A stretch of 64,000 nt of DNA from a virus. The stretch spans positions 34,281-98,280 of the IMG/VR virus record IMGVR_UViG_3300013947_000002. One strand, written 5' to 3'. Every line of letters begins with the position of its first letter. Position 1 is the stretch's first letter. The notes beneath the pieces are model-generated. The model was not told the DNA's origin. It saw nothing but the letters and a program-made list of their open reading frames with translations, and made no database searches. Below, one piece after another: positions 10,089-58,328 of this stretch. The position numbers and the translations under genes are program-made.

Positions 10089-10090
10089 TA

Positions 10091-10342: not shown

Positions 10343-10649
10343 TTATATCCGGCGCGAGGATCTGATGGCCGCACGGGAACAAGCGATTCGTGTGTATGAA
10401 AATGCAAATATTTTCAATGCCGCCGCAATCCGAGAAGATTTAAGACCGCTTCTGGATGCTGTTGTCGACGTACCCGCTGCAAATATTACAGAGATTATCC
10501 ATTGTAAAGATTGTGCCTATTTTCATCCATATCCATTTGAGCCCGAGTATGGCAGTTGCAAATATCATCTTGACCCCGACTTACAATGGGAAGAAAAGAA
10601 AGAAACGGACTACTGTAGTGATGCAGAGAGGTTAGAAGATGAAGATTGA
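10335..10649 (+). CDS. hypothetical protein with CKDCAYF motif
   Basis: Coupled ORF. Shares ADxIxRxxL and CKDCxYF with its neighbours. Confidence 0.5.
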   Translation: MADYIRREDLMAAREQAIRVYENANIFNAAAIREDLRPLLDAVVDVPAANITEIIHCKDCAYFHPYPFEPEYGSCKYHLDPDLQWEEKKETDYCSDAERLEDED

Positions 10650-17253: not shown

Positions 17254-17282
17254 TTGACAAATGAAATCAAATATGCTATATA
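17254..17282 (+). promoter_or_regulatory. sigma-A-like promoter
   Basis: TTGACA 17254-59, 17 nt spacer, TATATA 17277-82. Confidence 0.55.
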
Positions 17283-17323
17283 TATATATATACGAGCCAC
17301 AGATTTGGAGAGGAGAAACGAAA

Positions 17324-18091
17324 ATGAAAAATGAGATTCGATATATCATTGCAGGAATTGGATTGGCTGTAATTGGATTTACTGCTTGTGGCGCATTTGT
17401 CTATCAGCAAATCAATGAATATAATGCCATGATGGATGAACGAGCCGCAAAATCAAAGCCGGTATCCTATTCAATTAAATGTGTGCCGATTGATGTACAA
17501 GAGCCGGTTGGCGCAACTGAAATCGAATATCTGCCATCCGATGATGATGATATAGGTATAGTCGAGATGGAGACTGTAGTCACCGAGGTTGAGCCTGAGC
17601 CTGAGCAGCAGATTGAAGAATCAGAATCGGATTATGTCTATGTGCCGCCATTTCATTTGACAGAATACGAGACATGGTTTGTTGAATGTGTGGTAGCTGG
17701 TGAGGCTGCTGGTGAGCCGTATAAGGGTAAACTGGCCGTTGCTCAGTGCTATTTTGACGCAATGCTGAAGGACGGCTTGTCAGCCACAGAAGTAAAATCG
17801 GCATATGGATATAGTGGCTGGAATGAAAATCTGGATAAGCAAGACCCCAAAGCATATGATGAGGTTAAAAATGCTGTAGCCGATGTGTTCTATGGCGGCA
17901 AATTTGTAACTGATAAACCGATTTTATATTTCTATGCACCCGCATATGGTCGTAGTGATTGGCATGAAGCTCAGGAATATTGGAAAAGTATTGCTAACCA
18001 TAAGTTCTTTTACCTTGCTGAAGATGTAAATGCAGAATGGACAAATATCCTCTTGACAAATGTAAATGAATATGATATGATTGAGCCGTGA
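17324..18091 (+). CDS. membrane-anchored cell-wall hydrolase (SleB/CwlJ hydrolase_2-like)
   Basis: ATG follows GGAGAGGAG. N-terminal TM segment IIAGIGLAVIGFTACGAFV. VECVVAGEAAGEPYKGKLAVAQCYFDAM resembles the SleB motif. Confidence 0.55.
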   Translation: MKNEIRYIIAGIGLAVIGFTACGAFVYQQINEYNAMMDERAAKSKPVSYSIKCVPIDVQEPVGATEIEYLPSDDDDIGIVEMETVVTEVEPEPEQQIEESESDYVYVPPFHLTEYETWFVECVVAGEAAGEPYKGKLAVAQCYFDAMLKDGLSATEVKSAYGYSGWNENLDKQDPKAYDEVKNAVADVFYGGKFVTDKPILYFYAPAYGRSDWHEAQEYWKSIANHKFFYLAEDVNAEWTNILLTNVNEYDMIEP

Positions 18092-23547: not shown

Positions 23548-24555
23548 TGTAAAGATGATGGTGCTACGAAGCCCACAGAGGACACTATCCATGGAGTGCC
23601 GAGCTGGGGAATACAGGAGCAGTAGTAAATGGAGTGAGATGAACAGCCATCATTATATGCCATATGAGGTCTTGAATGCGAATGAGCCAATGGCTGAAAT
23701 TGCTCATCCAGATTTGGAGTAGTATTCAAGATATAACCTTAGCATTGCTCGTGCGAGAGGCAAGCCAAGCTAACTGCATATCCTACGTGGAATGTCTGTC
23801 TTGGATGGAAAAGAGCGAATTAGGGAACGTGCGTGAGATAAATGAGAGAAGCATAAAAGCGGGTCACAGTCGTGTGAAAGACCGTAATGCCAAGTAGGGC
23901 GCACCAGTCAATCTGTTCGGCATAATAAAGGGATTGGGGTTGACGATTATAGAATGGCACATCGGAAAGACGATGATAATATCCGACCGGATTTGAAGAT
24001 AACCGTCAAATCTATATCACGCCTGCACTGGGGTCTGCGCAGAGTTTGAGAAGCGGCAGATACAGACTAGAGAATTGGGGTCGCGCCCAATCGTGCCACG
24101 TTAGCATCCATGCAAAAACGTAACGTCGAAGGTGATATAAGGATGTTATGTAAACAGCATTCACGAGCCGATGCTAGAAGTAGCTATGAGGTAGGAAGTC
24201 GGCTTGAGATTGAATATGGAAGTGTAAGCTAACTGGATAAACCTCGCCAATTTGGTGAGATTGCAAGTTCGATTCTTGTCACTTCTATTCCCCCACATCC
24301 ATCACGCTTCTGTTTAGCATTGCAAGCGTACCACGATGGATGTATAGAAAAGTCTAAAATCCTAGCTTTGTAAGGCTGAACACAAGAATTGGTCACTTGT
24401 GAACGGTCTAGTTTATAAGTTATAATGCTAGTTGCCGAATAGTTGAAAGCTGACCACCTGACGCTATGAGGCAGCGCTCGCCACACTCCCGATTTTAAGA
24501 TGGTTGCGCAACTGTAAATTCAATTTAGCCTGAATTTGTAAGGAGTGTGGCAATT
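23548..24555 (+). ncRNA. candidate giant (~1 kb) structured non-coding RNA
   Basis: No SD-preceded ORF, and the GC content looks higher than the flanks by eye. Nested helices at 23555-61/23647-53, 23940-50/23999-24009, 24296-24309/24324-24342 and 24480-89/24542-51. Confidence 0.6.
24218..24287 (+). other. tRNA-like module embedded in the large RNA
   Basis: Acceptor GGAAGTG/CACTTCT, anticodon-like stem CTCGC/GTGAG with loop CAATTTG, and T-arm GCAAG-TTCGATT-CTTGT. The D-stem is degenerate and no CCA is encoded. Confidence 0.45.
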
Positions 24556-24976: not shown

Positions 24977-25005
24977 TTGACAAATCGCCGCTGTGGTGCT
25001 ATACT
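24977..25005 (+). promoter_or_regulatory. sigma-A-like promoter of the recombinase gene
   Basis: TTGACA 24977-82, 17 nt spacer, TGC-TATACT 25000-05. Confidence 0.6.
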
Positions 25006-25034
25006 TAAACCATCAAATAAAGGAGCTGAATGAT

Positions 25035-25871
25035 ATGAACGAACTATTTATTATGTCGCTTAAAGCAAAGCATCGTAGTGAGGGTACCATTCGCGAATAT
25101 ACCAAGGCGATCGAGAACTGCTTGTCGTATGTCAAGAAGCCTGAAACCGACATCAAGCCGATTGACCTTGAGTTGTGGCAGTCCAGCATGAGCAATCTTA
25201 GCTCTGCATCCGTAGCACAGCGCACATCGGCTGTTCGCGAGTATTTCAAGTTCTTGTATCGCAATGAATTTATCAGTCGCAATCCTGCTGATATGCTTGA
25301 AGCGCCGAGTATCAAGAATCGTGAGCAGTCGGCTCTTGATGGAGAGCAGGTCAGAGCGATGATTAACGCCGCAACAAATCTGCGTAACAAGGCGATTATT
25401 ACGATGCTGGCTCAGACCGGTCTTCGCATCCATGAGCTTGCCAATATCACGCTTGAGCAGTATCAGAGCCGCAATGGTAATGTGTTGGTCATTCGTGGTA
25501 AGGGTGATAAGGATAGGCTGGTTGGCCTGGCTGATGAGACGATCAAGCTGATTGATAGCTATATTGCTAATGAGCGCAAAGACGGCTGCGAATACCTGTT
25601 CGTCGGCAATCGCGGCAATAAGATGGACGGCAAGAACACCAGTGCTATGCTCAAGGTGTGCGCTAAGAAGGCTGGTATTGAGAATTGGGAGGAGTTGCAT
25701 ATCAGCAATCATACGATGCGCCGCACGTTTGCTACGATGATGTCCGAAGCCGACGTACCTATTGAGATAATTAGTAAGGCAATGGGGCACTCAGGTTTGG
25801 CTATCACGTCCAGATACATCAAGCGCACCGAGCAGAGAGCGGTCAATGCTATGGCTGTTATGAGTTTTTAA
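25035..25871 (+). CDS. tyrosine recombinase/integrase (XerC/D-like)
   Basis: N-terminal SAM-like domain (EGTIREYTKAIENCL), then GLRIHELANI, HTMRRTFAT and GHSGLAITSRY (R..HxxR..H..Y). Confidence 0.9.
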   Translation: MNELFIMSLKAKHRSEGTIREYTKAIENCLSYVKKPETDIKPIDLELWQSSMSNLSSASVAQRTSAVREYFKFLYRNEFISRNPADMLEAPSIKNREQSALDGEQVRAMINAATNLRNKAIITMLAQTGLRIHELANITLEQYQSRNGNVLVIRGKGDKDRLVGLADETIKLIDSYIANERKDGCEYLFVGNRGNKMDGKNTSAMLKVCAKKAGIENWEELHISNHTMRRTFATMMSEADVPIEIISKAMGHSGLAITSRYIKRTEQRAVNAMAVMSF

Positions 25872-42826: not shown

Positions 42827-42855
42827 TTGACAATCAACCTCCTTTGTGGTATAAT
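42827..42855 (+). promoter_or_regulatory. sigma-A-like promoter whose spacer is complementary to the downstream RBS
   Basis: TTGACA 42827-32, TGG-TATAAT 42850-55. ATCAACCTCCTT (42833-44) is the reverse complement of AAGGAGGTTGAT (42871-82). Confidence 0.6.
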
Positions 42856-42889
42856 CGCTATATCAACAATAAGGAGGTTGATTTTATTT

Positions 42890-43777
42890 ATGAGAGTATT
42901 ATCGTTATTTGATGGGATTGCCTGTGGACGGTTGGCATTAGAAAGAGCTGGTATTAGAATCGATTCATATGATGCTTGGGAGATTGAAAAGAACGCAATT
43001 AAAGTCGCGGCGACCAATTATCCAGACATTATAGAACACGGCGATGTAACAAAACAGGATTTTACAAAATATAAAGACAAGGTGGATTTGCTTATTGGAG
43101 GTTCGCCTTGTCAAGGATTCAGCTTTTCAGGTAGAATGCTGAATTTTAATGACCCTCGTAGCAAACTCTTTTTTGAATTTGTCAGAGCCATTGAAGAATG
43201 CAAGCCCAAATACTTTTTACTTGAAAACGTTGTGATGAAACAGGAATGGCGAAACATCATTTCATCATATCTTGGAGTTGAGCCAATTGAAATAAATTCA
43301 GCACTTGTATCAGCTCAAAATCGACGCAGATTGTATTGGACTAATATACCGAATGTAAATCAACCAAGAGATAAAAACATCAAACTAATTGACATTCTTG
43401 ATGATAAATCAATGCTTAATCCGGCCGCTATTCGTGGTCGTACAATTGTTGGGTATAATAAGAATACTGTTCAATGTCTTGAGGTTAGGTCTAAATACAC
43501 TGACAAATCAAATTGTTTGACAACCGTTGATAAGGACAATGTATTAACATCATTGTCACATGGTAGATATATTGACGTATTTAACAATACTTATCCGTGG
43601 CGATACTATACCACTGCGGAAATGTGTAGGTTACAAACATTGACAGATGATTATCTTAATATGATACCTGATAGCGCAGCGAGAAAAGCGCTTGGGAATG
43701 GATGGGCAGTGGATGTAATCACACATATCTTCAGTTATTTACCAGATAAATATAAGATTGGAGGGGAGAAAGATTAA
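42890..43777 (+). CDS. DNA cytosine-5 methyltransferase
   Basis: Contains LSLFDGIACG (I), GGSPCQGFS (IV), LLENV (VI), QNRRR (VIII) and GNGW (X). Confidence 0.9.
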   Translation: MRVLSLFDGIACGRLALERAGIRIDSYDAWEIEKNAIKVAATNYPDIIEHGDVTKQDFTKYKDKVDLLIGGSPCQGFSFSGRMLNFNDPRSKLFFEFVRAIEECKPKYFLLENVVMKQEWRNIISSYLGVEPIEINSALVSAQNRRRLYWTNIPNVNQPRDKNIKLIDILDDKSMLNPAAIRGRTIVGYNKNTVQCLEVRSKYTDKSNCLTTVDKDNVLTSLSHGRYIDVFNNTYPWRYYTTAEMCRLQTLTDDYLNMIPDSAARKALGNGWAVDVITHIFSYLPDKYKIGGEKD

Positions 43778-44495
43778 AATTCATCCACTACTAGATTCCC
43801 TTAATGAAGCCACATTTTTACGAGCATATTTACGTGTCTGTGGTATAGATGATGTTGATGCTTATCTGCATCCAGATAAGATTGAATATCAAAGCCCAGA
43901 TATGTATAAGAATATGGATGTGGCTGTACTGCTACTTAAACAACATCTTACAAAAATGAGTAGAATCGCAGTTTTGTGCGACGAGGACGACGATGGCCTG
44001 TGTTCATGCGTTATCATTGCAGATATGCTTAAGCGGCTCAATGCTGAATATCGTATCTTCTTCCATACGGTTGCAAAGGCGCACGGTATTAGAGCCGACT
44101 CATCTGATAAGGTGCTGGATGATATTCTTGAATATGCGCCATCTCTACTTATCATCCCAGACGCAAGCGCAGATAGAGAATCATGCCAGACGCTCAGAGA
44201 GCATGACTGTGACGTGCTTATCCTAGACCATCATCTATATGATTTTTCAAATAATCCATACGCAGTTATTGTGAATTGTCTGCAACAGAGCGATACTAAT
44301 CAATCAGCAAGTGGCGCATTGATAGCAAGCAAATTCGCCAATACCGTTCTGGGCAACGATAAAGACGAATATGCCGACCTTGTAGCCATGTCGCTTATTG
44401 GTGATGTTATGGATTTACGCGACCTAGAGAATAGAGCCTATATCAATCAATGGCAAAGAGATTATGAGAAGGCGGTGAGCAAGCCGAATGAATGA
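43758..44495 (+). CDS. RecJ/YorK-like DHH phosphoesterase, N-terminal ORF
   Basis: Contains VLCDEDDDG (DxD), IIPDAS and LILDHH (DHH). Confidence 0.7.
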   Translation: MEGRKIKIHPLLDSLNEATFLRAYLRVCGIDDVDAYLHPDKIEYQSPDMYKNMDVAVLLLKQHLTKMSRIAVLCDEDDDGLCSCVIIADMLKRLNAEYRIFFHTVAKAHGIRADSSDKVLDDILEYAPSLLIIPDASADRESCQTLREHDCDVLILDHHLYDFSNNPYAVIVNCLQQSDTNQSASGALIASKFANTVLGNDKDEYADLVAMSLIGDVMDLRDLENRAYINQWQRDYEKAVSKPNE

Positions 44496-45423
44496 ATTTT
44501 TGACCTATATGGTAGAGAAGTTGGGCAAAGGTAGGCCGCCCTCTCCAACAAACGTGTCTTGGAACGTTGTGCCCAAGATTAACGCCGTTTTCCGAAATGG
44601 TACACAAGATGATAGGGCTGTGCTGATTGACGGCTTTATGGGCAACGTAGAGCCTGAGACGGCTATTAAGGTTGCTACTCGTTGCCATAGTAAACAAACG
44701 CGAGAGGTCAAAGCGCTGTTCGATTCGGCTATTAACAATCTCAACATTTATAAAAATTGCGTCGTAGCAATGATTAATAATAAACACAAAGAATATACTG
44801 GTCTATTGGCTAATAAGCTAATGTCCAAATATAATAAGACTGCATTTGTGTTTAGAAAATTAGACCCATGCACTCTATCAGGTAGTTATCGCTCGCCTGT
44901 TGATATTATTGATTTACTCAATGATAGCGGCTTAATCAAAGCGCAGGGTCACGGTTGTGCCGCTGGTTGCTTCTTGAAGGTGTCAAATGCCAAGCGATTC
45001 GTCAAGTGGTTTGACGAACAACAGATTGATATGGCTGGCGTTGTTGAGGTTGCGGCAAGTATTGAACCAAGTCAAATTACACACGCGCTATGTCAAATTT
45101 GTGTGGACAATGAAGGCTTGTTCGGACAGGGGTGCCCCAAGCCACTATTCCATTGTACTTTAACAACTCCACAGATTTATGTATATCGTAATCGCTCAAC
45201 TACTGTCAAGCTGATTCAGGACGGCATTGAGTTCATTAAATTCTTTGTTAACAATGAAGAAGTAAGTCAGTTTGAGGCGGCACAGGGCAAATCCATAGAG
45301 GTTGTGGTATCTCTTGGATTGAATGAATATAATGGGCAAATTAAGCCGCAAGCAATAATCGAGCGATATGAAATTGTAGATAAGAAAAACGATGAATTTG
45401 ATTGGGAAAGGATTTTTCAATGA
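44488..45423 (+). CDS. RecJ-like exonuclease, C-terminal (DHHA1-like) ORF
   Basis: Starts 8 nt before the upstream stop in the +1 frame. Contains AQGHGCAAG (GHxxAAG-like). Confidence 0.6.
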   Translation: MNEFLTYMVEKLGKGRPPSPTNVSWNVVPKINAVFRNGTQDDRAVLIDGFMGNVEPETAIKVATRCHSKQTREVKALFDSAINNLNIYKNCVVAMINNKHKEYTGLLANKLMSKYNKTAFVFRKLDPCTLSGSYRSPVDIIDLLNDSGLIKAQGHGCAAGCFLKVSNAKRFVKWFDEQQIDMAGVVEVAASIEPSQITHALCQICVDNEGLFGQGCPKPLFHCTLTTPQIYVYRNRSTTVKLIQDGIEFIKFFVNNEEVSQFEAAQGKSIEVVVSLGLNEYNGQIKPQAIIERYEIVDKKNDEFDWERIFQ

Positions 45424-46493
45424 TTTACCTAGAATATGCAGCAACTAATTCATTCACCAAGTATCCGTCTAGCAGGTACGGCCCGTTCTTGAACCCTAAT
45501 GCCAATTATGCTTACAGAGAGCAGAAGTTGCTTGATGAATGCAGAGATAGGGTAAAGGCGACTATTGGTGCAAAGAGTGGCAAAGTTATATTTGGTGGTA
45601 CAAGTAGCCAGTTGATTGAAAATTTGATGAATCGTGCCAAGCGGAACACGGTAATCTGTTCAAAATACGAGCATGACAGTTTTTGGAGATACGGCTTTGA
45701 TTCTATTGGAAATATCGATGAGTTACCAAATATTATTTCTGATACACCAGAAAGCTACGGAAAAATGCTTGTCATGTGGCAGGGTGTGAATAATATCACA
45801 GGTCAGATTTTTCCCATTGAGCAAATCGGCAATATGTGCCACAGCTATAATGCGTTCTTCATCTGCGACATGACGGCCATGATTGGAAAGGTGGCGATTC
45901 CTGACAATATTGACCAGTGGTGCGATATTGCTGTGTGGAGCGGCCATAAGCTAGCCACCGAGGGCGGCATTGGTTGTATGTGGCTATCTGACAGGTTTAA
46001 TGAATGGCTGGGCGGCTTCAAGCTACGTGGTACGCCTAATCTGGCTGGGGCTTGTGCTATTGCAGATGCTACAGAGGATGCTTGTCAGAACGTAGATGCA
46101 CATGAAGAATATTGCTATGAGCTATATCGCTATTTGCTTGCCGAGCTATCAGCTAATGGTATTTATGGCGGCGTTGTCAACTCAGCTATGAAACCAGACA
46201 AATCCGATGCTACAGAAAGAGCGCCTAGTACGTATGCTATCAATGCTATCATGCTTGACAATATCAATGCCGATAGTCTACAACAGTATCTAGCGTCGCA
46301 GTCTATTTATATTGGGATTGGTGGCTCTGCCTGTTCGAGCCTACATGATTTTAGAGTGCTTAATGCTTGCGGCTTGACAAATAATGAGGCAAGCAGAGTT
46401 ATTAGAGTATCGTTTGATTATGATACGGATAAGCAAGATATTGACGATTTGGTGTATAATATTAAACAATATAAGGAGAAGTTTGTAGGATGA
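45420..46493 (+). CDS. class V aminotransferase-fold cysteine desulfurase (NifS/IscS/DndA-like)
   Basis: IYLEYAATN N-terminus, PLP-lysine context WSGHKL..GGIG, and active-site loop GGSACSS. Confidence 0.75.
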   Translation: MIYLEYAATNSFTKYPSSRYGPFLNPNANYAYREQKLLDECRDRVKATIGAKSGKVIFGGTSSQLIENLMNRAKRNTVICSKYEHDSFWRYGFDSIGNIDELPNIISDTPESYGKMLVMWQGVNNITGQIFPIEQIGNMCHSYNAFFICDMTAMIGKVAIPDNIDQWCDIAVWSGHKLATEGGIGCMWLSDRFNEWLGGFKLRGTPNLAGACAIADATEDACQNVDAHEEYCYELYRYLLAELSANGIYGGVVNSAMKPDKSDATERAPSTYAINAIMLDNINADSLQQYLASQSIYIGIGGSACSSLHDFRVLNACGLTNNEASRVIRVSFDYDTDKQDIDDLVYNIKQYKEKFVG

Positions 46494-47554
46494 ACCATAC
46501 AAAGGAAGATTTGAAAGAGCTACAATCTAAATCTCTTGAAGAAAAAGTACAGATTAGCTTGGCCCGTATTATTGAATGGCATGAACATTGGGATGGTAAG
46601 GTGTATATCTCTAATTCTGGCGGCGTTGACTCTACTGTCCTCAGTCACCTAGTCCATTCCATATATCCCGATGTACCAGATGTGTATTGTGATACTGGGC
46701 TTGAATATCCTGAATTACGCGATTTTATTATGAGTAAGCCAAATGTGGTTGTTCTAAAGCCTAAAATGAATTTTGTTGAAGTAATTAAAAAGTATGGTTA
46801 TCCAATTATTTCAAAAGAGGTTGCATCTGTTATATCTCAAGCACGAAAAGGCAATAATTGGGGGTTGCATAAAATAAATGGGAAGAAAACAAATGGGCAA
46901 GACGATGCCTATGGAAAAGCTATGATGAAGTGGAAGTTTCTACTTGATGCCGATTTTAATGTTGATAATTATTGTTGTAAGGAAATGAAGAAAAAACTTG
47001 CGTATAAATATGAGAAAGAAAGTGGGTTAAAAGCGTTTGTCGGTACGATGACAGATGAGTCATTATTAAGAAAAACGGAATGGCTAAAACATGGCTGCAA
47101 TGCCTTTGATGGTAATCGTCCAATTTCGACTCCGCTATCATTTTGGACTAAATCCGACGTACTGCATTATATTGTCAAATATAACATCCCATATGTCAAA
47201 GAAATCTATGGTGACATCATAGAAAAAGATGGTGTATATACCACAACCAAACAAAAGCGCACAGGTTGCATTTTCTGTGGCTTTGGTTGCCATCTTGAAA
47301 AAGAGCCAAACAAATTCCAAATATTAGCTAATATCAATCCTCATCTCTACGACTACTGTATGCGTGGCGGCAAATACAACGAATCTGGCATGTGGATTCC
47401 TGACAAGGGACTTGGTATGGCTAAAGTGTTAGATTATATCAATGTCAAATGGTGGAACGATGGCGATGAAGCCAAGCGAGACGACTATAGAGCAAAATAT
47501 AAGGAGAAAGAAAAAATTGAGCAGAGCAGAACGCAACCGCCGCAAGAAGATTGA
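46490..47554 (+). CDS. PAPS-reductase-family PP-loop ATPase (DndC/SspD-like)
   Basis: PP-loop SNSGGVDST, plus the Cys clusters NYCCKEMKKK and RTGCIFCGFGC. Confidence 0.7.
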   Translation: MNHTKEDLKELQSKSLEEKVQISLARIIEWHEHWDGKVYISNSGGVDSTVLSHLVHSIYPDVPDVYCDTGLEYPELRDFIMSKPNVVVLKPKMNFVEVIKKYGYPIISKEVASVISQARKGNNWGLHKINGKKTNGQDDAYGKAMMKWKFLLDADFNVDNYCCKEMKKKLAYKYEKESGLKAFVGTMTDESLLRKTEWLKHGCNAFDGNRPISTPLSFWTKSDVLHYIVKYNIPYVKEIYGDIIEKDGVYTTTKQKRTGCIFCGFGCHLEKEPNKFQILANINPHLYDYCMRGGKYNESGMWIPDKGLGMAKVLDYINVKWWNDGDEAKRDDYRAKYKEKEKIEQSRTQPPQED

Positions 47555-47699
47555 GCGACCACTAAAATATGCGCCTATTCATTGTCCGGATTGCGGACTA
47601 GTCGTAGATGAAAAATATATTGTTGATATTAACTCGACTTGTCCTATTTGTGGTAAAGAGCTATTTGGCGCACTAAAAGAAATGATGAAAAATAATTAA
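47517..47699 (+). CDS. small Zn-ribbon protein
   Basis: Putative TTG start after AAGGAG. Contains CPDCG...CPICG. Confidence 0.4.
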   Translation: MSRAERNRRKKIERPLKYAPIHCPDCGLVVDEKYIVDINSTCPICGKELFGALKEMMKNN

Positions 47700-48286: not shown

Positions 48287-48385
48287 GAGCCGCATTTCTA
48301 AACAAATTTCGGAGGTATTGAATAATGCGTTATATGGGCGGAAAGAGCCGAATCAGCAAGCAGATCGCGAATGTGCTGAACGGCG
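48267..48385 (+). repeat. tandem duplication (58-nt offset) of the methylase N-terminal coding segment
   Basis: MQYMGGKSRISKQISEVLNNA (from 48267) versus MRYMGGKSRISKQIANVLNGA (from 48325, one frame over). The two copies differ mostly at synonymous positions. Confidence 0.7.
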
Positions 48386-49065
48386 CAATGAGAGAGAGAG
48401 AGAGAGAGAGAGCATTCGTAAGCCTGTTCTGTGGCTCATGCGCCATTGAGTCAAAGGTACAAGCAGACGTTAAAATCCTCAATGACAAGCACTCCTATCT
48501 CATTGCTATGTGGCAAGCGTTACAGAATGGCTGGATGCCACCTGATGTAGTGACCAAGGAAGAATATTATCACGTTAAAGCCAATATGGACGAAGACCCT
48601 GCTTTGACCGGATTTGTCGGCTTTGGTTGCTCATTCGGCGGCAAATGGTGGGGTGGCTATGCTAAAGATAAACGTGGCGATGATTACTGCGGTCAGGCAA
48701 AGCGCAGCTTGATGCGCAACTATGTGGGTAAAGCCAAGTCTACTTTACAAAAAGATTTATCTGGTCTACAGATCGCTACATTCACTTGTCTTGATTATAA
48801 AGATGTAGAAATCCCAGATGGCGCGGTTGTATATTGTGATCCACCTTATGCAAACACAACGGGTTATACATTAGGCAAATTTGATACAGATGAATTTTGG
48901 GATTATATGCGCCAGCTATCTAAGCGATGTGATGTATATATCAGTGAGGAATCCGCGCCTGATGATTTTGAATGTGTCTGGAGCAAAGAGAAAGTAAGGA
49001 CGCTTGAAAAGAGCGACAATGTGAGTCGCGTCAAAGTAGAAAAATTATTTAAGTGTAAAGGTTAA
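48325..49065 (+). CDS. D12-class (Dam-type) N6-adenine DNA methyltransferase
   Basis: Contains MRYMGGKSRI and YCDPPYANTTGY. Confidence 0.85.
   Translation: MRYMGGKSRISKQIANVLNGAMRERERERAFVSLFCGSCAIESKVQADVKILNDKHSYLIAMWQALQNGWMPPDVVTKEEYYHVKANMDEDPALTGFVGFGCSFGGKWWGGYAKDKRGDDYCGQAKRSLMRNYVGKAKSTLQKDLSGLQIATFTCLDYKDVEIPDGAVVYCDPPYANTTGYTLGKFDTDEFWDYMRQLSKRCDVYISEESAPDDFECVWSKEKVRTLEKSDNVSRVKVEKLFKCKG
48391..48412 (+). repeat. (AG)11 dinucleotide microsatellite inside the methylase ORF
   Basis: 22 nt of uninterrupted AG, translated as RERERER. Confidence 0.95.
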
Positions 49066-49071
49066 AATATT

Positions 49072-51240
49072 ATGCCAAAAGCAAAACTACTCCCACAGCG
49101 ATTCTTATACCGTGACACCAAGACCGATTTTGCCATCCTGTCATGTAAGCTGGTTAATCCTGTTGCCGGTATAGAGACGCACCCTGTATATCACAACCTA
49201 ACATTGAAAGGTGCGAATATAGCCAACTTTGAGCTGAATCGCCGCATTGACTGTATCATCGAGCCAATCATTGATGAGAAGCATCCATACAGCTATAAAT
49301 TTATCAGCTTTGGCTCGTTTGAGGCAAAAGGCGGCAAATTCAAGTTGACAGAGAAACAGGAGTTACAGGCTCTACGCAGCTTGATGACGAATAGACAGGC
49401 TGAATCATGCCATGCCGCCTACCCTCACTTTGTCAGTATGGTGCTAAATGGCGAACAAGAACAAATCGACCCAAGCAAAATCAAGTATGTGAAGAACGTG
49501 CTGTTAAACCGTTATATCGCCAAAATCAAGTCAATCAATAACCGCATCGCATTTATGGAAGAAGCGGCTAAATGGTCTATTGAATCCGATGAGAACCTGA
49601 ATAAGATTGCGGCGCGATACGGCAATATTGACGAGTTCAAAGAGGACATTGAACAGAACCCATACAACGTGCTTATGGACGTGTTGGATTGGGGCTGGAC
49701 AAGGGCTGATAAGGCGGTAATGAAATATGCGCCATCTCTTGCTTGTTCATTAAATAGAGCCGAAGCCGCCTGTATCTATCTACTCAAGCGAAATGAGGAT
49801 GATGGCAACACGCGAATCGGCGCATCTGAGCTATTTGACCAGTTTGTGTCTCTATGCCCCGAATCGGTTAGTTATATCTATGAGGCAGTCACTACATCGT
49901 CTAAAATTTACTATGAGCCAGAGCGCAAGTATGTAAGCCGCAAATCGACCTATATGGCGGAATGCCATGTAGCTGAGGTCGTGAAGAAAAAAATAGCCAA
50001 TCCACATTATTATCCTATGAATTGGCAGAAGTTTACAAGCGTAGACGGATTAGATCTGACAGATGAACAATCACAGATTCTTGAGATGGCTTGTAAACAG
50101 GACGTAATGATGTTGACGGGGAGTGCCGGTTCTGGTAAGAGTCAGACACTCAAGGCCATTATTGAGATGCTTGAAGCTAACAACTATGGCTATACACTGC
50201 TAGCTCCAACAGGAATCGCCGCAAAGAGGATGCGTGAGGCAACAAGTCGTGAAGCCAGCACCATTCATATGTTCTTGCTGAGTGAAGCGATGGCGGGCGA
50301 TTATGTGTTGATTGACGAATCTGGCATGGTTGCAGTTGACCTGCTATCCGCTCTATTCAATAAGCTCAATGACAATACCAAACTCATCTTTATTGCAGAC
50401 CCATCTCAACTTGCTTCTATCTCATGTGGCAATGTTGTGCGCGATCTGCTTGATGGCGGCATCGTGCCTGTATGTAACTTAACCAAGGTGTTCAGATACA
50501 ACACGTCTGGTATCATAACCATTGCTACTGATGTACGAAATGGTGATAGTAGCCATCTGACAGATACTTTCACGGATTATAAGTTTGTTGAAATTGATAC
50601 ATTACCAATCAAGCAAATTGAGCGAGAATATGCGGCGCTGTTGGCTAGTGGCTATGGGCAGGATGATATATTGATTCTGTCGCCATTCAATAAGGGGCAA
50701 TGCGGCTCATTGGTTATCAACAATTATATCCAAGATAAATTTAACCCAAATCCACCTACAGATGTTGGCTGGACGATGAATGGTGTAGAAGTCAAGTTCC
50801 GTGTTGGTGATAAGGTCATCAATAAAAAGAATGAATATCGTATGCCGCTTGCCGATAGAGATGATACGGCGTTTGTAGCTAATGGCGACATGGGGCGCAT
50901 CGTGGATATTGAGCCTGATGATAAAATGCCACAGATGGTCGTGCATTTTGATTGCGGTGATTGCCTGGTTGATAAGGCGCATATCAGTAGAATGTTGCTA
51001 GGATATTGTATCAGCACACATAGCAGCCAGGGCTGTCAAGCAAAGGCGGTGATTGTGGTGGTAGATAGAAGCCATATGCGGCTTATTTCGCGTAACCTGC
51101 TATACACTGGGGTGTCAAGGGCGCAAGAGCGGCTAGTAGTAATTGGCGATATGGAGGCGATTGAGGCAGGACTAAATGTGCAGGAAGAAAAATGTAGGAA
51201 TACGTGGTTGAGAGAGGTGTTAAAGGATGGCGTTGATTAA
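49072..51240 (+). CDS. RecD-like superfamily 1 helicase
   Basis: Walker A LTGSAGSGKSQT, Walker B VLIDESGMV, motif VI-like ISTHSSQGCQA, and LLYTGVSRAQERLVVIG. Confidence 0.8.
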   Translation: MPKAKLLPQRFLYRDTKTDFAILSCKLVNPVAGIETHPVYHNLTLKGANIANFELNRRIDCIIEPIIDEKHPYSYKFISFGSFEAKGGKFKLTEKQELQALRSLMTNRQAESCHAAYPHFVSMVLNGEQEQIDPSKIKYVKNVLLNRYIAKIKSINNRIAFMEEAAKWSIESDENLNKIAARYGNIDEFKEDIEQNPYNVLMDVLDWGWTRADKAVMKYAPSLACSLNRAEAACIYLLKRNEDDGNTRIGASELFDQFVSLCPESVSYIYEAVTTSSKIYYEPERKYVSRKSTYMAECHVAEVVKKKIANPHYYPMNWQKFTSVDGLDLTDEQSQILEMACKQDVMMLTGSAGSGKSQTLKAIIEMLEANNYGYTLLAPTGIAAKRMREATSREASTIHMFLLSEAMAGDYVLIDESGMVAVDLLSALFNKLNDNTKLIFIADPSQLASISCGNVVRDLLDGGIVPVCNLTKVFRYNTSGIITIATDVRNGDSSHLTDTFTDYKFVEIDTLPIKQIEREYAALLASGYGQDDILILSPFNKGQCGSLVINNYIQDKFNPNPPTDVGWTMNGVEVKFRVGDKVINKKNEYRMPLADRDDTAFVANGDMGRIVDIEPDDKMPQMVVHFDCGDCLVDKAHISRMLLGYCISTHSSQGCQAKAVIVVVDRSHMRLISRNLLYTGVSRAQERLVVIGDMEAIEAGLNVQEEKCRNTWLREVLKDGVD

Positions 51241-52067: not shown

Positions 52068-52385
52068 TTGTTTGTAAATGAGGTATATGAGTCTATCTGG
52101 AAAGACCGATACCAAAAGGATGGTGAGTCATATGATGAGCAACTATGGCGCGTAGCTGAATTTATTGCTAGAGCAGAAGATGATAAGCCATATATGTGGG
52201 CTGATAAGTTTTACTCAATTATGAAAGAAGGTTATTTCTTTCCTGCTGGTCGTACCATGAGCAATGCTGGCGTTGGTGAAAAACTAACCCTCAATAATTG
52301 CTTTGTCGCGCCTATTATTGGCAATAGTATGGAGCAGATTTTTGATGCGGTTAAGCTAGGCGCTATGACACATAAGGCTGGAGGT
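52068..52385 (+). CDS. nrdJ: class II (B12-dependent) ribonucleotide reductase, exon 1
   Basis: Contains IWKDRYQKDGE..., FFPAGRTMSNAG and LNNCFV. Ends ...THKAGG at the T paired in P1. Confidence 0.8.
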
Positions 52386-53250
52386 AAACACAATTCTGCC
52401 TCCCTGTGCAGTAATGCACAGTAAAAAATTCTGTGAACCTATAAATATAGGGTGTGGTTTTGACGTTTAGTAGTTATAGGAAATGATAATTAACAAAACC
52501 GCTAACGGGGAAACCTAAGTCAATACGATATGGCAATCCCGTGGAAAGTTGCTTGGTTTAAGAGAAAAAATAAATAAGAGAGGAGGATTCAATGTGAATC
52601 ATGTAGAAATTTCAGATTATCCGGGTTATGAAATTTTTGAAGATGGTCGCGTGTTTTCAAAATATACAAACAAGTTTCTAACATCAAAGATTGATAGATA
52701 CGGATATAGCGTATATCATTTAAGACGTGGTAAAAATGAATTTCCAACAGCGCATAGATTGGTTGCGTTGGCATTTATTCCCAATCCGAATGGTTTTCAA
52801 TCTGTAAACCATAAAGATGGAAATAAACAGAATAATAATAAAGACAATCTTGAGTGGTGTTCTGAATCATATAATAGTTGGCATAAATGCAACATCCTTA
52901 ATGAGAAACCAATCAGATATGGAGATAAACAAGTTGTGGCTAAAAATACAATAACTAACGAAGAGATATTGTTTAATTCAGAATCTGATGCTGCGATATT
53001 CTTTAATGTATCACAAACAACTATCAGTCGAAAAATTTTGACCAAACATATTACACCTAAAAGATGTAAGACACAAAATTGGCTGTTTGAATTTAAGTAA
53101 CTCAAAAACTCTTAAACCAAGTAAAATCTCTAACGACTATCCATAATGGAGTACAGCATAAGCGAAATTCTTATGTTGGAAGTGCAGAACCCCAACAAAT
53201 AGTTGGGTGAAGATATAGTCTAAACTATTATGAAAATAATAGAATCAATG
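52386..53250 (+). mobile_element. group I intron 1 of nrdJ (865 nt) with HNH ORF
   Basis: P1 pairs exon GGAGGT with IGS GCCTCC (52398-403), with U-G at the splice site. P7-like TAACGACTA and GATATAGTCTA. The terminal G is at 53250. Splicing restores KAGG|GIGYAFS. Confidence 0.8.
52594..53100 (+). CDS. intron-encoded HNH homing endonuclease (NUMOD4-like N-terminus)
   Basis: GTG start 7 nt after AGGAGG. Contains ISDYPGYEIFEDGRVFS and VNHKDGNKQNNNKDNLEW. Confidence 0.75.
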   Translation: MNHVEISDYPGYEIFEDGRVFSKYTNKFLTSKIDRYGYSVYHLRRGKNEFPTAHRLVALAFIPNPNGFQSVNHKDGNKQNNNKDNLEWCSESYNSWHKCNILNEKPIRYGDKQVVAKNTITNEEILFNSESDAAIFFNVSQTTISRKILTKHITPKRCKTQNWLFEFK

Positions 53251-53752
53251 GGAATTGGATATGCGTTCAGTAATCTAGCCCCCAATGGCTATAAGACGCG
53301 CAATGACGCTATTGCATCTGGCCCAGTTAGTTTTATGGATGTATTTAATGCTCAGACAGCTACGGTGCAGCAAGGTAGCAGGCGCGGCGCAAACATGGGT
53401 ATGCTCAGTGTGTATCATCCTGACATCCTTGAATTTATACGCGCCAAGTCTGCAACTGAAGGACGGCTTAATCATTTTAATCTATCCGTAGTTGTAGATG
53501 ATGCTTTTATGCAGTTAGTCATTGCCGATGGTCAAGTTCAGTTGCATTGGCCTATTTATGATGAAAAGGGCAATAAGTTACCACCAGCCAAGTGGGATAA
53601 GCAGTTTACCAAGCTAGTGCCAGCTCGTGATATTTGGAATGAAATCATGAAGATGGCATATGATAATGGTGAGCCGGGCGTATTCTATGAGGATAATGCT
53701 AATAACCGCAATCCTGCATGGTATGTAGAAAGAATTGTATGCAGCAATCCGT
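53251..53752 (+). CDS. nrdJ: class II ribonucleotide reductase, exon 2
   Basis: Contains GIGYAFSNL..SGPVSFMDVF..RRGANMGMLSVYHPDILEFI...CSNP. Ends on the first nt of the Cys codon. Confidence 0.8.
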
Positions 53753-53922
53753 TAGCCGTATAAACGTGCGGATGTAAAATCTCCTCTGATTGACTTGGAC
53801 GCTGAATACACAGCTACAAGGGGCAAGGGTAATGCTAGCCTGAACGACTAAGCGAGGAGACCCCAAGGGGATGCGATAGTCTAGCGCACGATGTGAAATG
53901 TATTTGATACACATTGTGTGAG
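53753..53922 (+). mobile_element. ORF-less mini group I intron 2 of nrdJ (170 nt)
   Basis: P1 pairs ATCCGT (53747-52) with GCGGAT (53768-73). P3 CTCCTC/GAGGAG, P7 ACGACTA/TAGTCT, P8 CCCCAAGGGG, terminal G at 53922. Splicing gives SNP-C-A-E (NxCxE). Confidence 0.75.
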
Positions 53923-55463
53923 GCGCTGAATATCTAGCAGGTACAATCAATTCAATCGGCCCGTCGCAGTATGGCGGTGCTTGTAACCTCGGCTCATTGT
54001 TCCTTCATAATTTTGTTCGTAATCCATTTACTAAACAGGCACATCTTGATACTGAAGCCCTACGCGATACAATTTCTATTGCTGTCCGTATGCTTGATGA
54101 TATTATTGATGTCAATAAATTCCCCGACAAGATTTATGAGAATTATCAGAGGGGTATGCGCACCATTGGTATTGGTATTACAGGTCTAGCTGATATGCTT
54201 GCTATGCTAGGCATGAAGTATGACAGTCAAAAAGCAAGAGATTATGTTGAATCTCTAATGCAAATGATTACAAATGCTGAATATTATGCCTCTGTGCAAC
54301 TTGCTAAAGAAAAGGGTTGTTTTCCTCTGTGTGAGCCCGACAAGCATATTGACGGCGCATATGTCAAGGACGTCCTAGAAAAAGACGTACTCGATGAAAT
54401 GGCCGAGTACGGTATTCGCAATGCCAAGATTCAAGCCGTTGCCCCATGTGGCACAATCTCTATAGTATTCGGGAACAACTGCTCTAGCGGCATTGAGCCG
54501 ATTTTCTCTCTGAGTTATGACCGCAAGGCAAAGATTGGCGGTCAGGATGATAAGGATGTCAAAATCGTCAAGATGATGGACTACGCTTATTATCTATATC
54601 ATAAGCTGAAAGATGAAGGCAAGCTCCTAGATTTTGATGAACATGATATTTTCCCAACCGCTCTCAATATGTCTGTTGATGACCATGTAGCTATGCTTGC
54701 CATTATTAGCAAATACACCGACATGAGCGTTAGCAAGACAATCAACGTTCCTACTGAAGCATCGTTTAATGAAGTCAAGGACATTTATATGCAATGCTGG
54801 GAAAAAGGCATTAAGGGTTGCACCATCTTTAGACCTAATGCTATTCGTCAGGGCATTTTGCTGACTGATAATAAGCAAGGCGAAGAAAAATCTGAATCGA
54901 TGGAACCACCAACTCTCCCTCGCGGTTCAATCATCGAGCCAAGCAATGACCTGATTGGCAAAAAGCGCAAGATTCAGACAGGATGTGGCAGCTTACACGT
55001 CATCGGCTTCTTTGACCCCATTGATGGCAGTCTACAAGAGGTATATTTCAACAAAGGCTCGACAGGCGGATGCCAGAATTTCATGGTTGGTCTGAGTCGC
55101 GCAATCAGCCTACTATGCCGTGCCGGTGTAGATATTATGACCATCAAAGACCAGCTTGATTCAACAGGTGTATGCCCCTCTTATGCTACGCGCAGAGCAA
55201 CCAACCATGATACCAGTAAGGGGTCTTGTTGCCCCATGGCTATTGGCAATGCTCTAGTTGATATGTATAATGAGATGCAAGCAGAGCTAGATGATAAAGA
55301 GGATGACGATAAGCCGGTAAAGAAAGTACCGATTAAATCCGAGATTGGCAAAGTAAACGTATTAAATACGAACAATGGTGTATGCCCTGAATGTGGCGAA
55401 CCGCTTGTGTTTGAGGGCGGTTGCTGCACCTGTAAGTCATGTGGATATACAAAGTGCGAATAA
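53923..55463 (+). CDS. nrdJ: class II ribonucleotide reductase, exon 3
   Basis: Starts (C)AEYLAG...YGGACNLGSLFL. C-terminal CPECGEPLVFEGGCCTCKSCG Zn-ribbon. Confidence 0.8.
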
Positions 55464-56160: not shown

Positions 56161-57181
56161 TAACATAAAAGTGCCCTTACATAGTAATATGTATTGAAAA
56201 CTCCGTTAACTTGTAATTGCAAGGTGTGAAGTTAACTTTTTAAGGTCGGCAAGGAAATATGCCGTTTATAACTTTGCTAACAGGGGAAATCTAAGGTTGA
56301 CACTATGACAACCCTGTGCTATAATTAAAATGTCCAGAGAAAGAAGGAGGTGAGAATTTTGAAGAAAATTAACATAGTTAACAATATTTATTCTTCCAAT
56401 CATTACGGTGATTTTATTGTAGAGAAAGAGCTAAATTCGCAAGGAACAAGCACATATTATCAAGTCCGCTTTTTGAAAACTGGTACAGTATGCAAGGCTG
56501 AAAAACATAACATTAAAAAAGGTTCCGTAGCCGATTGCTATGCTAAAACAATTTATGGTGTTGCTTGTCGAGGGCAAGCATCTTCCAGACATCCTACTTT
56601 AAACAAAGTAGCTTTTAAGCGTTGGACGGCTATGGTGTCCCGTTGTTATAATCAAAATGATATTGGTTATAAATCTTATGGTGGTAAAGGTTATACCGTA
56701 TCTGATAGTTGGCTTTGTTTTGAAAATTATATACGAGACATTGTTGATATTGAAGGTTTTAATGAAGAAAAATATCTCAAAGGCATCATTCAATTGGATA
56801 AAGATATTAAAGCCCCCGGTAACAAAGAATATTCTGCCGACAAGTGCATATTTCTAAATGCTTCTATTAATAAGAGAAATCAACCTTCAAAGCAAAGAGA
56901 TTTTTATGCTATTTCACCACAAGGACAACAATTCATATATAATAACGCTAATGCCTGTGCCAAAGAAAACAACCTAACCGCAAGAACTATCTTAAAATGT
57001 TTGAAAGGTCAATTCTCACAACACAAAGGCTGGACATTCAAATATGTAGTCTAACGACTATCTCGAAAGAGAGTAGAGCAATTATGAAATGAATTGCTCG
57101 AAAAGCGGAGAACCCATATCTTTATGGGTTGTGATATAGTCTACTCCCCTAATAAATATCGGGAAACCGAGGGTATAAAGG
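56161..57181 (+). mobile_element. group I intron (1021 nt) with homing-endonuclease ORF
   Basis: IGS GTGC (56171-74) pairs with exon GCAT. GCTAACAGGGGAAATCTAAGG, CTAACGACTA and GATATAGTCTACTCC. The 3' end GGGTATAAAGG is homologous to the RNAP intron. Confidence 0.75.
56359..57054 (+). CDS. intron-encoded homing-endonuclease-like protein
   Basis: TTG start 8 nt after AGGAGG. FKRWTAMVSRCYNQND..YGGKGYTVSDSW. Paralog of the 3298 and 35030 genes. Confidence 0.65.
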   Translation: MKKINIVNNIYSSNHYGDFIVEKELNSQGTSTYYQVRFLKTGTVCKAEKHNIKKGSVADCYAKTIYGVACRGQASSRHPTLNKVAFKRWTAMVSRCYNQNDIGYKSYGGKGYTVSDSWLCFENYIRDIVDIEGFNEEKYLKGIIQLDKDIKAPGNKEYSADKCIFLNASINKRNQPSKQRDFYAISPQGQQFIYNNANACAKENNLTARTILKCLKGQFSQHKGWTFKYVV

Positions 57182-57517: not shown

Positions 57518-57837
57518 CTAAAATTTTTATCTCTCAGCCAATGAATGGCAAGACAAATGAAGAAATCCTTAAAGCGAGAGAAGATATTACTACTAGATTA
57601 TCAGCGCAATTTGCTAGATGCAACACATATATTGAGATTATTGATTCGTTCTTCAAAGATGCCTCACACGATGCCAAGCCTCTATGGTATCTAGGCGAAT
57701 CAATTAAGTTAATGAGTGAAGCAGACATTGTGTTCTTCTGTGACGGTTGGCAAGCCGCTAGAGGTTGTCAGATTGAGCATGATTGCGCTCTTGAATATGG
57801 CATTGATACTATGTATGAGGAGGATTTAATTTGTTGA
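57514..57837 (+). CDS. DUF4406 / nucleoside 2-deoxyribosyltransferase-like protein
   Basis: Contains IFISQPMNGKT...ADIVFFCDGWQAARGCQIEHDCALEYG. Confidence 0.55.
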   Translation: MTKIFISQPMNGKTNEEILKAREDITTRLSAQFARCNTYIEIIDSFFKDASHDAKPLWYLGESIKLMSEADIVFFCDGWQAARGCQIEHDCALEYGIDTMYEEDLIC

Positions 57838-58328
57838 AGATTAAAGCAAAGCGCATAACCGATACTGCCAAGTTACCTACTTATGGTAGCGAACGCGCGG
57901 CTTGTATGGATTTATATGCGGATTTAAGTGACCATTGCATCACGCTTAATCCGGATGTAGAAGTGCGCAATATTAGTGGCAATGAAAACGGCCCGATTCA
58001 GCGTGTGGGTATTGCGCCCCATAGCACCATCAAAATTCCTACAGGTTGGGCATTTCAGCCACCTGAAGGATATATGCTACAGATTCTACAGCGCTCCGGT
58101 CTAGCAAGCAAAGGGCTAATCCCGATTGGTGGGGTAGTAGATAATGATTATGTTGGCGAGGTTACAATCATTCTTCTTAATACAACTGACGATTATATCT
58201 TCGTACAGAACGGCGACCGTATTGCCCAAATGGCTCTACGCAAGTATTATCAAGCTGACTTCGAGCTAGTTGATGAGCTAGATGAAACAGAGCGTGGGGA
58301 CGGTGGGTTTGGCTCTACTGGCACATGA
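57831..58328 (+). CDS. dut: dUTP diphosphatase
   Basis: Contains GGVVDNDYVGEV, DRIAQM and ERGDGGFGSTG. Confidence 0.85.
   Translation: MLKIKAKRITDTAKLPTYGSERAACMDLYADLSDHCITLNPDVEVRNISGNENGPIQRVGIAPHSTIKIPTGWAFQPPEGYMLQILQRSGLASKGLIPIGGVVDNDYVGEVTIILLNTTDDYIFVQNGDRIAQMALRKYYQADFELVDELDETERGDGGFGSTGT

Follow-up and report, generated by a model that had tools for sequence, protein, structure and literature searches.

What does a phage do with a cysteine desulfurase gene that runs directly into a gene for a PP-loop ATP pyrophosphatase? Such a pair lies on the plus strand of the window analyzed here, a 64,000-nt stretch of IMG/VR virus record IMGVR_UViG_3300013947_000002 (positions 34,281 to 98,280). 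The family of the second protein is usually labeled a sulfur-metabolism gene in viromes. Phage 3'-phosphoadenosine-5'-phosphosulfate (PAPS) reductase is among the most reported auxiliary metabolic genes of gut and environmental viromes and has been tied to host sulfur metabolism, bee health, and human longevity without a functional test (PMC13369170; bioRxiv 10.64898/2026.02.18.706556). An earlier note, made from the sequence of the window, had suggested instead a minimal system that inserts sulfur into phage DNA or tRNA. Our own reading, to which we give an about even chance of being right, is that the pair is a desulfurase-fed nucleic-acid sulfurtransferase with DNA as the favored target. 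The pair reframes a very common annotation, and the literature searched contained no account of a phage desulfurase/PP-loop module.

The two open reading frames (ORFs; Table 1) are as the earlier note described them: they overlap by ATGA (GGATGAACC), and all of the motifs it quoted are present. The ORF for the C-terminal part of a RecJ-like exonuclease overlaps the start of the desulfurase gene by ATGA in the same way.

The first protein begins with MIYLEYAATN and carries SGHKL at aa 174-178 and GGSACSS at aa 301-307. It matched Pfam Aminotran_5 (E = 1.6e-25) and the PADLOC models for SspA (1.5e-29) and DndA (3.5e-28), and it is a member of phrog_12787 (1.9e-31), a family of unassigned function. 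When aligned to the IscS structures 4r5f and 1p3w, His85 (stacking on pyridoxal phosphate, PLP), Asp150, Lys177 (PLP), Cys305 (persulfide), and Arg329 (substrate) fall at the catalytic positions; the loop GGSAC305SS aligns with SGSAC328TS of IscS, and R329 with the Arg of IRFS. None of these five residues varies among eight phage homologs that share only 34-36% identity. One departure from IscS is the DATQ motif, where Gln is replaced by Ala (DMTA). The identification as a NifS/IscS-type desulfurase is borne out by these alignments, and with all catalytic residues present the enzyme is predicted to be catalytically competent. It did not reach the cut-off of any curated NCBIfam subfamily model (IscS, NifS, SufS, DndA): the best score was 98 bits against cut-offs of 300-640, and the DndA model gave 52.8 bits against a cut-off of 480. 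Since all curated scores are far below the cut-offs, we place the protein in a divergent, phage-specific branch and do not consider it an ortholog of IscS, NifS, SufS, or DndA. A search of IMG/VR with the single desulfurase sequence returned nothing; an alignment-based search succeeded.

The second protein matched Pfam PAPS_reduct (6.3e-13) and phrog_424 (2.2e-40 over aa 8-300). Its family is large, with more than 7,000 proteins scored in a 90%-identity database and 1,215 of 1.84 billion cluster representatives recovered at E <= 1e-30 (at least 1215 clusters at 50% identity). Conservation was calculated from an alignment of 267 members. Within the PP-loop motif SGGVDS (aa 43-48), S43, G44, G45, D47, and S48 are each conserved in at least 95% of the sequences. 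C162 and C163 (in YCCKEMKK, aa 161-168), C260 and C263 (in GCIFCGFGC, aa 259-267), and C203 are conserved in 100%, and C290 in 96%. The description of this protein as a PP-loop ATPase with SGGVDS and two cysteine clusters holds for the family, except that the last cysteine of GCIFCGFGC (C267) is conserved in only 59% of the members.

The AlphaFold2 (AF2) model of the protein (pLDDT 87) had its best Foldseek matches to CysH and adenosine-5'-phosphosulfate (APS) reductases (6vpu, 2goy, 1sur; E = 4e-8), followed by CysD, FAD synthase, TtuA, and LarE. In hhalign, the family aligned to the APS reductases 2goy and 7lhr with a probability of 99% (E = 2e-17), and Cys162-Cys163 and Cys260-x-x-Cys263 aligned with the CC...CxxC motif of the Pseudomonas aeruginosa and Mycobacterium tuberculosis enzymes. 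This motif ligates a [4Fe-4S] cluster in APS reductases. The position of SGGVDS is occupied by SSSFGIQA in Escherichia coli CysH, which thus lacks the motif; a PP-loop at this position points to ATP-dependent adenylation rather than PAPS reduction. ECGLH is absent from the phage family, which has DYC(M/I)xGG at C290 instead. The segment from about aa 108 to 160 is an insertion relative to APS reductase and was left unaligned by hhalign. It is the most variable segment of the family, with indels and a mean column entropy of 2.5-3.1 bits, compared to 0.3-2.0 bits elsewhere.

To see how often the two genes go together, we surveyed 5 kb on either side of each gene. In two contigs picked through their desulfurases (L004 and L006, 84% and 70% identity), RecJ, desulfurase, PP-loop gene, a Zn-ribbon ORF, methylase, and RecD2 follow one another in this order. 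In all three contigs picked through PP-loop homologs at 52-61% identity, a desulfurase gene adjoins: L010 has the desulfurase, the PP-loop gene, and then three methylase genes, L009 has the reverse order, and L007/L008 (5903-10299) has three tandem PP-loop paralogs followed by one desulfurase. Overall, the desulfurase gene comes before the PP-loop gene in the window, L004, L006, L010, L014, L172, L176, L180, L184, L192, and L204, and after it in L009, L194, and L200. Between lineages with the pair, the desulfurases share 28-38% identity. A survey of IMG/VR with the desulfurase profile found both genes at 11 of about 31 phage-type desulfurase loci, adjacent to one another at 10 of the 11 and 0.9 kb apart at the other. 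That the pair recurs in different lineages, in both gene orders, and with different copy numbers, and that its junction is an ATGA overlap, speaks for functional coupling.

Two closely related contigs differ in the presence of the PP-loop gene. L176 and L177 are collinear with 84-92% nucleotide identity, except for a segment of 1,028 bp (L176, 6089-7116). This segment is the PP-loop gene, and it sits exactly between the stop codon of the desulfurase gene and the start of the Zn-ribbon ORF. In L173, whose gene order matches that of the window, the same slot is filled by a gene for a homing-endonuclease-like protein of 212 aa (6212-6850), and genes of this type are also found downstream of the desulfurase gene in L178, L187, and L196. 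The PP-loop gene is an accessory, exchangeable cassette, and the desulfurase gene, often with the Zn-ribbon ORF, is a stable gene of the replication module.

The Zn-ribbon ORF encodes a small basic protein with four cysteines (CPDCG...CPICG). Its start is uncertain: ATG at 47442 would give 85 aa, and TTG at 47517 would give 60 aa. The ORF is kept downstream of the module in L004, L006, L015/L174, L172, and L180; a related ribbon follows the desulfurase and PP-loop genes in L176 and the desulfurase gene alone in L177 and L190. The matches in Pfam were weak and to Zn ribbons. The protein is a possible nucleic-acid-binding partner of the pair. This conserved flank was absent from the earlier note's account of the locus. 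In phages that have only the desulfurase (L181, L182, L185, L188, L189, L191, L193, L195), the gene directly downstream (at about 6000-6700) often encodes a protein of 136-147 aa with an N-terminal four-Cys Zn ribbon and an unassigned C-terminal domain, and a primase gene comes next. This larger ribbon protein may be an alternative partner of the desulfurase.

For the question of the target, we examined the neighbors of 160 PP-loop homologs, 80 from IMG/VR and 80 from GTDB genomes (mostly Clostridia prophages). The commonest neighbors were DNA methyltransferases (N4/N6, C5, and D12; 31-44 loci), followed by HNH, small terminase, and portal genes. Methyltransferase ORFs per flank numbered 0.13 within 1.25 kb, 0.105 at 1.25-2.5 kb, and about 0.05 at 2.5-4.9 kb, so that they are about 2.4-fold denser within 2.5 kb of the gene than farther out, at 2.5-4.9 kb. 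Some family members carry independent N-terminal fusions to DNA-binding modules, namely two Cro/C1-type helix-turn-helix (HTH) domains (HTH_3; P0385), HTH_17 (P0262), a multi-CxxC ribbon (P0291), and a domain common to homing-endonuclease-like ORFs (P0329; BLASTP 1e-15). Overall identity among the tandem paralogs of L007 is 57-62%, but it falls to 21-31% in the insert (aa 108-160), and a divergence concentrated in the insert is the pattern expected of a specificity element. ARAGORN called no tRNA genes in the window, and a scan of roughly 60 of its ORFs found no gene for sulfate assimilation, deazaguanine synthesis, DndB/D/E, or SspB/C/E. The clustering with methyltransferases and the DNA-binding fusions agree with the DNA-metabolism context that the earlier note had seen around the pair, and on this basis DNA is probably the target rather than RNA. 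The product is possibly a thiobase, or a phosphorothioate (PT) made by a self-sufficient enzyme.

In the mechanism that we propose, the pair would be a minimal sulfur relay, carried by a phage and based on the phrog_424 family. The PLP enzyme would abstract sulfur from L-cysteine as a persulfide on Cys305, as its intact catalytic residues suggest. The sulfur would be passed to the neighboring PP-loop enzyme, possibly via C203 or C290, and the desulfurase would probably also supply the sulfide for a [4Fe-4S] cluster held by Cys162/163 and Cys260/263. The PP-loop enzyme would adenylate an oxygen of its substrate with ATP, and cluster-bound or persulfide sulfur would then displace AMP; a comparable scheme of adenylation and sulfur transfer is known for [4Fe-4S] PP-loop insertases such as TtuA, TtcA, and LarE and has been proposed for DndC (PMC10853773). 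The likeliest substrate is a nucleic acid, and among nucleic acids the replicated DNA of the phage itself is the likeliest. Target specificity would reside in the hypervariable insert of about 50 residues, and the basic Zn-ribbon protein may help. The PP-loop gene would be an exchangeable DNA-modification (anti-restriction) cassette, like the surrounding methyltransferases. The gene identities, motifs, fold, conservation, adjacency, and cassette patterns on which this scheme rests were computed directly; from them we infer the sulfur transfer between the proteins, the Fe-S cluster, the nucleic-acid or DNA target, and the product (phosphorothioate or thiobase).

A broader proposal, which we put forward tentatively and with some doubt, extends this to the phage PAPS reductase/cysH family as a whole. 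Its members would be self-sufficient, sequence-specific DNA sulfurtransferases that work without partners of the DndD/E or SspB/C type; the insert would read the target, a host or phage desulfurase would give the sulfur, and the genes would be swapped and stacked like methyltransferases against restriction. If this is true, the window contains a minimal DNA thio-modification system of two or three genes (desulfurase, PP-loop enzyme, Zn ribbon), and many sulfur "auxiliary metabolic genes" of viromes are actually epigenetic anti-defense genes. A partner-independent sulfur modification would be added to the anti-restriction repertoire of phages, and a widespread annotation would be corrected. Natural pairs of phages with and without the cassette, of the L176/L177 type, make the question directly testable.

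Several observations weigh against DNA thio-modification by the pair. The pairing is facultative: a desulfurase gene lies within 5 kb at just 5 of the 160 PP-loop loci, and these five include three of the four nearest relatives of the window protein (L012, L014, L015). Conversely, about 20 of the roughly 31 desulfurase loci have no PP-loop gene within 5 kb, with the catalytic Lys and Cys kept; since so many relatives keep it where the PP-loop gene is missing, the desulfurase must also serve another, independent role. The adjacency recurs, but the two genes are not an obligate unit. The endonuclease-like genes that occupy the same slot in L173, L178, L187, and L196 mean that adjacency could partly reflect an insertion hot spot. 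Models for DndB/D/E and SspB/C/E matched none of the 10 neighboring proteins, which agrees with the earlier remark that DndD/E- or SspB/C-like partners are not visible here; all known phosphorothioation systems require an NTPase of the P-loop type and a subunit that recognizes DNA (PMC12914056, PMC12707154), and PT dinucleotides were missing from isolates that had a PAPS-reductase gene without dndD (PMC12914056). The nearest solved structures of the PP-loop protein are reductases and not sulfurtransferases. Its top NCBIfam matches are archaeal PUA-associated PAPS-reductase-like proteins, a hint that some relatives act on RNA. Finally, the PP-loop genes of L015/L174, L098, and L027 contain in-frame stops (TAA for Gln, TAA for Tyr, TGA), which could be due to pseudogenization, assembly errors, or stop-codon recoding.

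If the target were RNA, the pair would thiolate host tRNA or another RNA during infection (s2C, s4U, or s2U type) and tune translation, with the PP-loop protein as a TtcA/TtuA-like [4Fe-4S] enzyme fed by the desulfurase. The chemistry would be the same as that of the known tRNA thiolases, TtuA and LarE are among the fold matches (E = 1e-4 to 1e-3), and, in addition to the archaeal NCBIfam matches, a homolog from a Sulfolobus virus carries the annotation of a PUA-PAPS reductase fusion; PUA domains usually bind RNA. We nevertheless consider an RNA target unlikely. Models for TtcA, TtuA, ThiI, and MnmA (NCBIfam, Pfam) gave no match at E <= 0.01, and the match to the TilS PP-loop was marginal (2.7e-3). 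The family adjoins DNA methyltransferases and packaging genes, its fusions are to DNA-binding HTH and homing-endonuclease-type domains, the ARAGORN scan of the window was empty, and tandem paralogs with divergent inserts suit many DNA sequence targets better than few tRNA sites. Very unlikely, in our estimate, is a pair of metabolic genes, in which the PP-loop protein would be a true CysH/APS reductase making sulfite and the desulfurase would separately boost Fe-S assembly or cysteine catabolism. The canonical SGGxDS motif that is kept by the family and missing in CysH, the replacement of the C-terminal ECGLH by DYC(M/I)xGG, and the hypervariable insert all speak against it, as do the curated CysH scores of 27-31 bits against cut-offs of 154-165 (TIGR00434, 27.3 against 165; NF002537, 31.2 against 154; TIGR02057 gave 23.8 against 254). 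No other sulfate-assimilation gene was found among the window ORFs scanned, the Bifidobacterium preprint itself reports hosts without the downstream pathway genes, and the methyltransferase clustering and DNA-binding fusions would be left unexplained. What speaks for metabolic genes is that the nearest solved folds are CysH and APS reductases, that the CC...CxxC motif is common to APS reductase, that the desulfurase has an independent role in the many relatives that keep it without the PP-loop gene, and that phage PAPS reductase is treated as a sulfur-metabolism gene in the literature (PMC13369170; bioRxiv 10.64898/2026.02.18.706556).

The two genes might also be linked through a cofactor only. 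The desulfurase would then build Fe-S clusters, that of the PP-loop enzyme among them, or serve another need of the phage, and the PP-loop enzyme would carry out a non-sulfur adenylation (amidation or amination, compare TilS, QueC, and GMP synthase) on DNA or a nucleotide. PP-loop enzymes catalyze many non-sulfur ligations, there were weak motif matches to QueC and TilS, the desulfurase is the stable core gene and the PP-loop gene the variable one, most family members lack a dedicated desulfurase, and DndA has been reported, in work cited in PMC10853773, to assemble the cluster of DndC. We assign this explanation a low probability: the nearest adenylating relatives of known function (BrxP, SspD, DndC) are all sulfur inserters, the conserved C203 and C290 beyond the cluster ligands fit a persulfide relay, the pair has no adjacent gene for an amidotransferase or an amine donor, and 7-deazaguanine pathway genes were not found among the ORFs scanned. 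Accidental adjacency, in which the variable slot behind the desulfurase gene takes up mobile cargo of several kinds and the PP-loop gene is one of them, functionally uncoupled from the desulfurase, would account for the clean presence and absence of the cassette in L176 and L177 and for the homing-endonuclease-like gene that takes its place in L173, with similar genes in the slot of L178, L187, and L196. It is quite improbable when pairing recurs among desulfurases that share 28-38% identity, when the opposite gene order and a triplicated PP-loop gene are also seen, when the junction is an ATGA overlap, and when the pair matches the established partnerships DndA-DndC, SspA-SspD, and IscS-TtcA.

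Table 1. Features of the desulfurase/PP-loop locus, in coordinates of the window.
Feature	Position	Strand	Basis
Cysteine desulfurase, class-V PLP aminotransferase fold, NifS/IscS/SspA-like, 357 aa	45420..46493	+	Aminotran_5 match
SGHKL of the desulfurase	45939-45953	+	
GGSACSS of the desulfurase	46320-46340	+	
PP-loop ATP-pyrophosphatase, PAPS/APS-reductase fold, predicted [4Fe-4S] sulfurtransferase, 354 aa	46490..47554	+	PAPS_reduct, phrog_424
PP-loop motif SGGVDS (aa 43-48), ATP alpha-beta pyrophosphatase signature	46616..46633	+	conservation
Hypervariable helical insert, aa about 108-160; candidate substrate/sequence-specificity element	46811..46969	+	entropy, alignment
Cys162-Cys163 dyad, predicted [4Fe-4S] ligands	46973..46978	+	conservation, alignment to APS reductase
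Cys260-x-x-Cys263, predicted [4Fe-4S] ligands	47267..47278	+	conservation, alignment to APS reductase GCxPCT
Further conserved cysteine C203	47096-47098	+	conservation
Further conserved cysteine C290	47357-47359	+	conservation
Basic four-Cys Zn-ribbon ORF (CPDCG...CPICG), overlaps 3' end of PP-loop gene	47442..47699	+	conserved flank
C5 cytosine DNA methyltransferase	42827..43777	+	Pfam DNA_methylase 5.7e-39; same operon-like block
RecJ-like exonuclease, DHH/DHHA1/RecJ_OB, two ORFs	43758-45423	+	domain matches
D12-class N6-adenine DNA methyltransferase (Dam-type)	48325..49065	+	Pfam MethyltransfD12 4.5e-17
RecD2-type helicase	49072-51240	+	domain matches

The genome to which the window belongs is that of a tailed phage and measures about 90-100 kb; the relatives are metagenome contigs of 85-103 kb, several of them with gut or fecal labels. 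A block of replication and nucleotide-metabolism genes occupies the plus strand from 39 to 58 kb of the window. It contains DnaB, a DnaG-type primase, a C5 methylase, the split RecJ, the desulfurase/PP-loop pair, the Zn-ribbon ORF, a Dam-type methylase, a RecD2 helicase, a ribonucleotide reductase interrupted by HNH genes, and a dUTPase; PolIII-alpha, a beta-CASP nuclease, Sak4, and an integrase are encoded upstream of the block. The neighbors named in the earlier note, a RecJ-like exonuclease upstream of the pair and a Dam methylase and RecD-like helicase downstream, were found in these places. We also weighed whether RecD2 might stand in for the DndD ATPase and rejected this, for RecD2 occurs in relatives without the PP-loop gene and matched only RecD-type models.

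Several genes of the block, and one in a relative, are split or interrupted. The RecJ-like DHH ORF (43758-44495) and the DHHA1/RecJ_OB ORF (44488-45423) overlap by ATGAATGA; RecJ is also split in L004, is a single ORF of 538-547 aa in L006 and L177, and has an HNH-like gene between its halves in L173. The large subunit of ribonucleotide reductase is in three pieces (52068-52424, 53230-53763, and 53997-55463, plus strand), and two HNH endonuclease genes accompany it: one separates the first piece from the second (52549-53100), and the other lies downstream (56350-57054). Rfam gave no intron at gathering score in this region, and in relatives the ribonucleotide reductase gene bears LAGLIDADG or is uninterrupted. 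In L010, the C5 DNA methyltransferase gene just downstream of the pair (9228-11108) has an intein (Hint_2/Intein_splicing), and two more methylase genes follow.

The window also encodes DUF1599 ("nucleotide modification associated domain 1"), a dCMP deaminase, and a dUTPase (8543-10088 and 57831-58328, plus strand), a hint of nucleotide-pool manipulation or base modification apart from the sulfur module. A tRNA-like element at 24218-24287 (plus strand) scored 30.9 bits in Rfam against a gathering score of 29; ARAGORN calls no tRNA there. It lies beside a tyrosine integrase gene (24993-25871) and could be a tRNA-derived attachment site. A SleB-type cell-wall hydrolase (Hydrolase_2; 17261-18091, plus strand) gave a weak match under the Pfam cut-off, neighboring loci contain SPbeta YorF/YorH domains, and the closest genome matches were to Oscillospiraceae and Lachnospiraceae; together these point to a host among the Clostridia (Bacillota). 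In a nucleotide search of the 5-kb region against 50,697 GenBank phages, there was no match.

Among known systems, the earlier note had likened the pair to DndA/DndC and SspA/SspD and had suggested a comparison with profile hidden Markov models of these and of the TtcA, ThiI, and DUF3440-type families. When 28 family members were compared to defense models, 27 matched BrxP (best 9e-21), 25 matched SspD (2e-11), and 16 matched DndC (3e-5). The window protein itself matched the PADLOC models for BrxP (2.3e-6) and SspD (8.9e-5), mainly over the N-terminal PP-loop region, and had no DndC match either there or among the curated NCBIfam models. From these matches we place the family in the same clade as the phosphorothioation enzymes and regard it as an ortholog of none of them: the kinship proposed earlier holds, in that BrxP, SspD, and DndC are the nearest sulfur-inserting relatives, but not as orthology. 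PDB sequence searches that started from the protein, from the family profile, or from a C-terminal fragment, and a Foldseek search of PDB structures, returned no DndC, SspD, or BrxP structure, and tblastn of plasmids returned generic "PAPS reductase family" genes and no DndC. The suggested comparison gave no match to TtcA, ThiI, or DUF3440-type families. The DUF3440/IbrA type was rejected, as Pfam gave no match beyond PAPS_reduct, and a QueC/7-deazaguanine role was rejected as well; its support was one match to a 29-residue motif, with no pathway genes found among the ORFs scanned.

APS reductase (CysH; PDB 2goy, 7lhr) is the best structural and profile match and has the CC...CxxC motif in common with the phage protein. 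However, the reductases 7lhr, 2goy, 7rge, and 2oq2 have ECG(L/I)H and no SGGxDS, whereas the phage protein has the reverse, in addition to its insert and an extra C-terminal domain. TtuA, TtcA, NcsA, TtuI, and LarE are weaker fold matches. The [4Fe-4S] PP-loop insertases adenylate with ATP and then transfer cluster-bound sulfide, with sulfur from a cysteine desulfurase (PMC9283937, PMC9825150, PMC10067955), but they belong to another clade of the PP-loop superfamily (template-modeling score only about 0.3), their sequence models gave no match, and their substrates are tRNA or a cofactor precursor. Thiolases of the TtcA/TtuA type characteristically have CxxC Zn-finger pairs on either side of the PP-loop domain. 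The solitary phrog_424 "PAPS reductases" of the GenBank phages phiCP34O and Clo-PEP-1 (Clostridium), NatCom_29429 (Ruminococcus), and Tyrion (Enterobacter) share 37-51% identity; these genes stand beside terminase or portal genes, whereas the window gene is coupled to a desulfurase gene and a Zn-ribbon ORF in a replication module.

The closest parallel is with DndA/DndC, SspA/SspD, and the desulfurase/BrxP pair of BREX type 4, in all of which, as in the phage, a NifS-like desulfurase adjoins a PP-loop ATP pyrophosphatase of the PAPS-reductase fold. The phage protein shares with DndC, SspD, and BrxP a PP-loop domain of this fold with SGGxDS. DndC has Fe-S cysteines and a Cys dyad (PMC10853773); the CC dyad and CxxC of the phage protein are invariant and were aligned only to the ligands of APS reductase. 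In Dnd systems, DndA is often missing and IscS substitutes for it (PMC10853773, PMC12914056); a dedicated desulfurase is often absent near phage PP-loop genes too, host IscS presumably replacing it. The phage pair differs in its hypervariable insert and conserved C-terminal extension and in its location within a replication/methylase block without a partner restriction module; it has no DndD/SspC ATPase, DndE/SspB recognition subunit, DndB, or BrxC/Z/L. Although it is not orthologous to the Dnd, Ssp, or BREX pairs and stands without their partner subunits, the phage pair may, by analogy, work like DndA/DndC or SspA/SspD.

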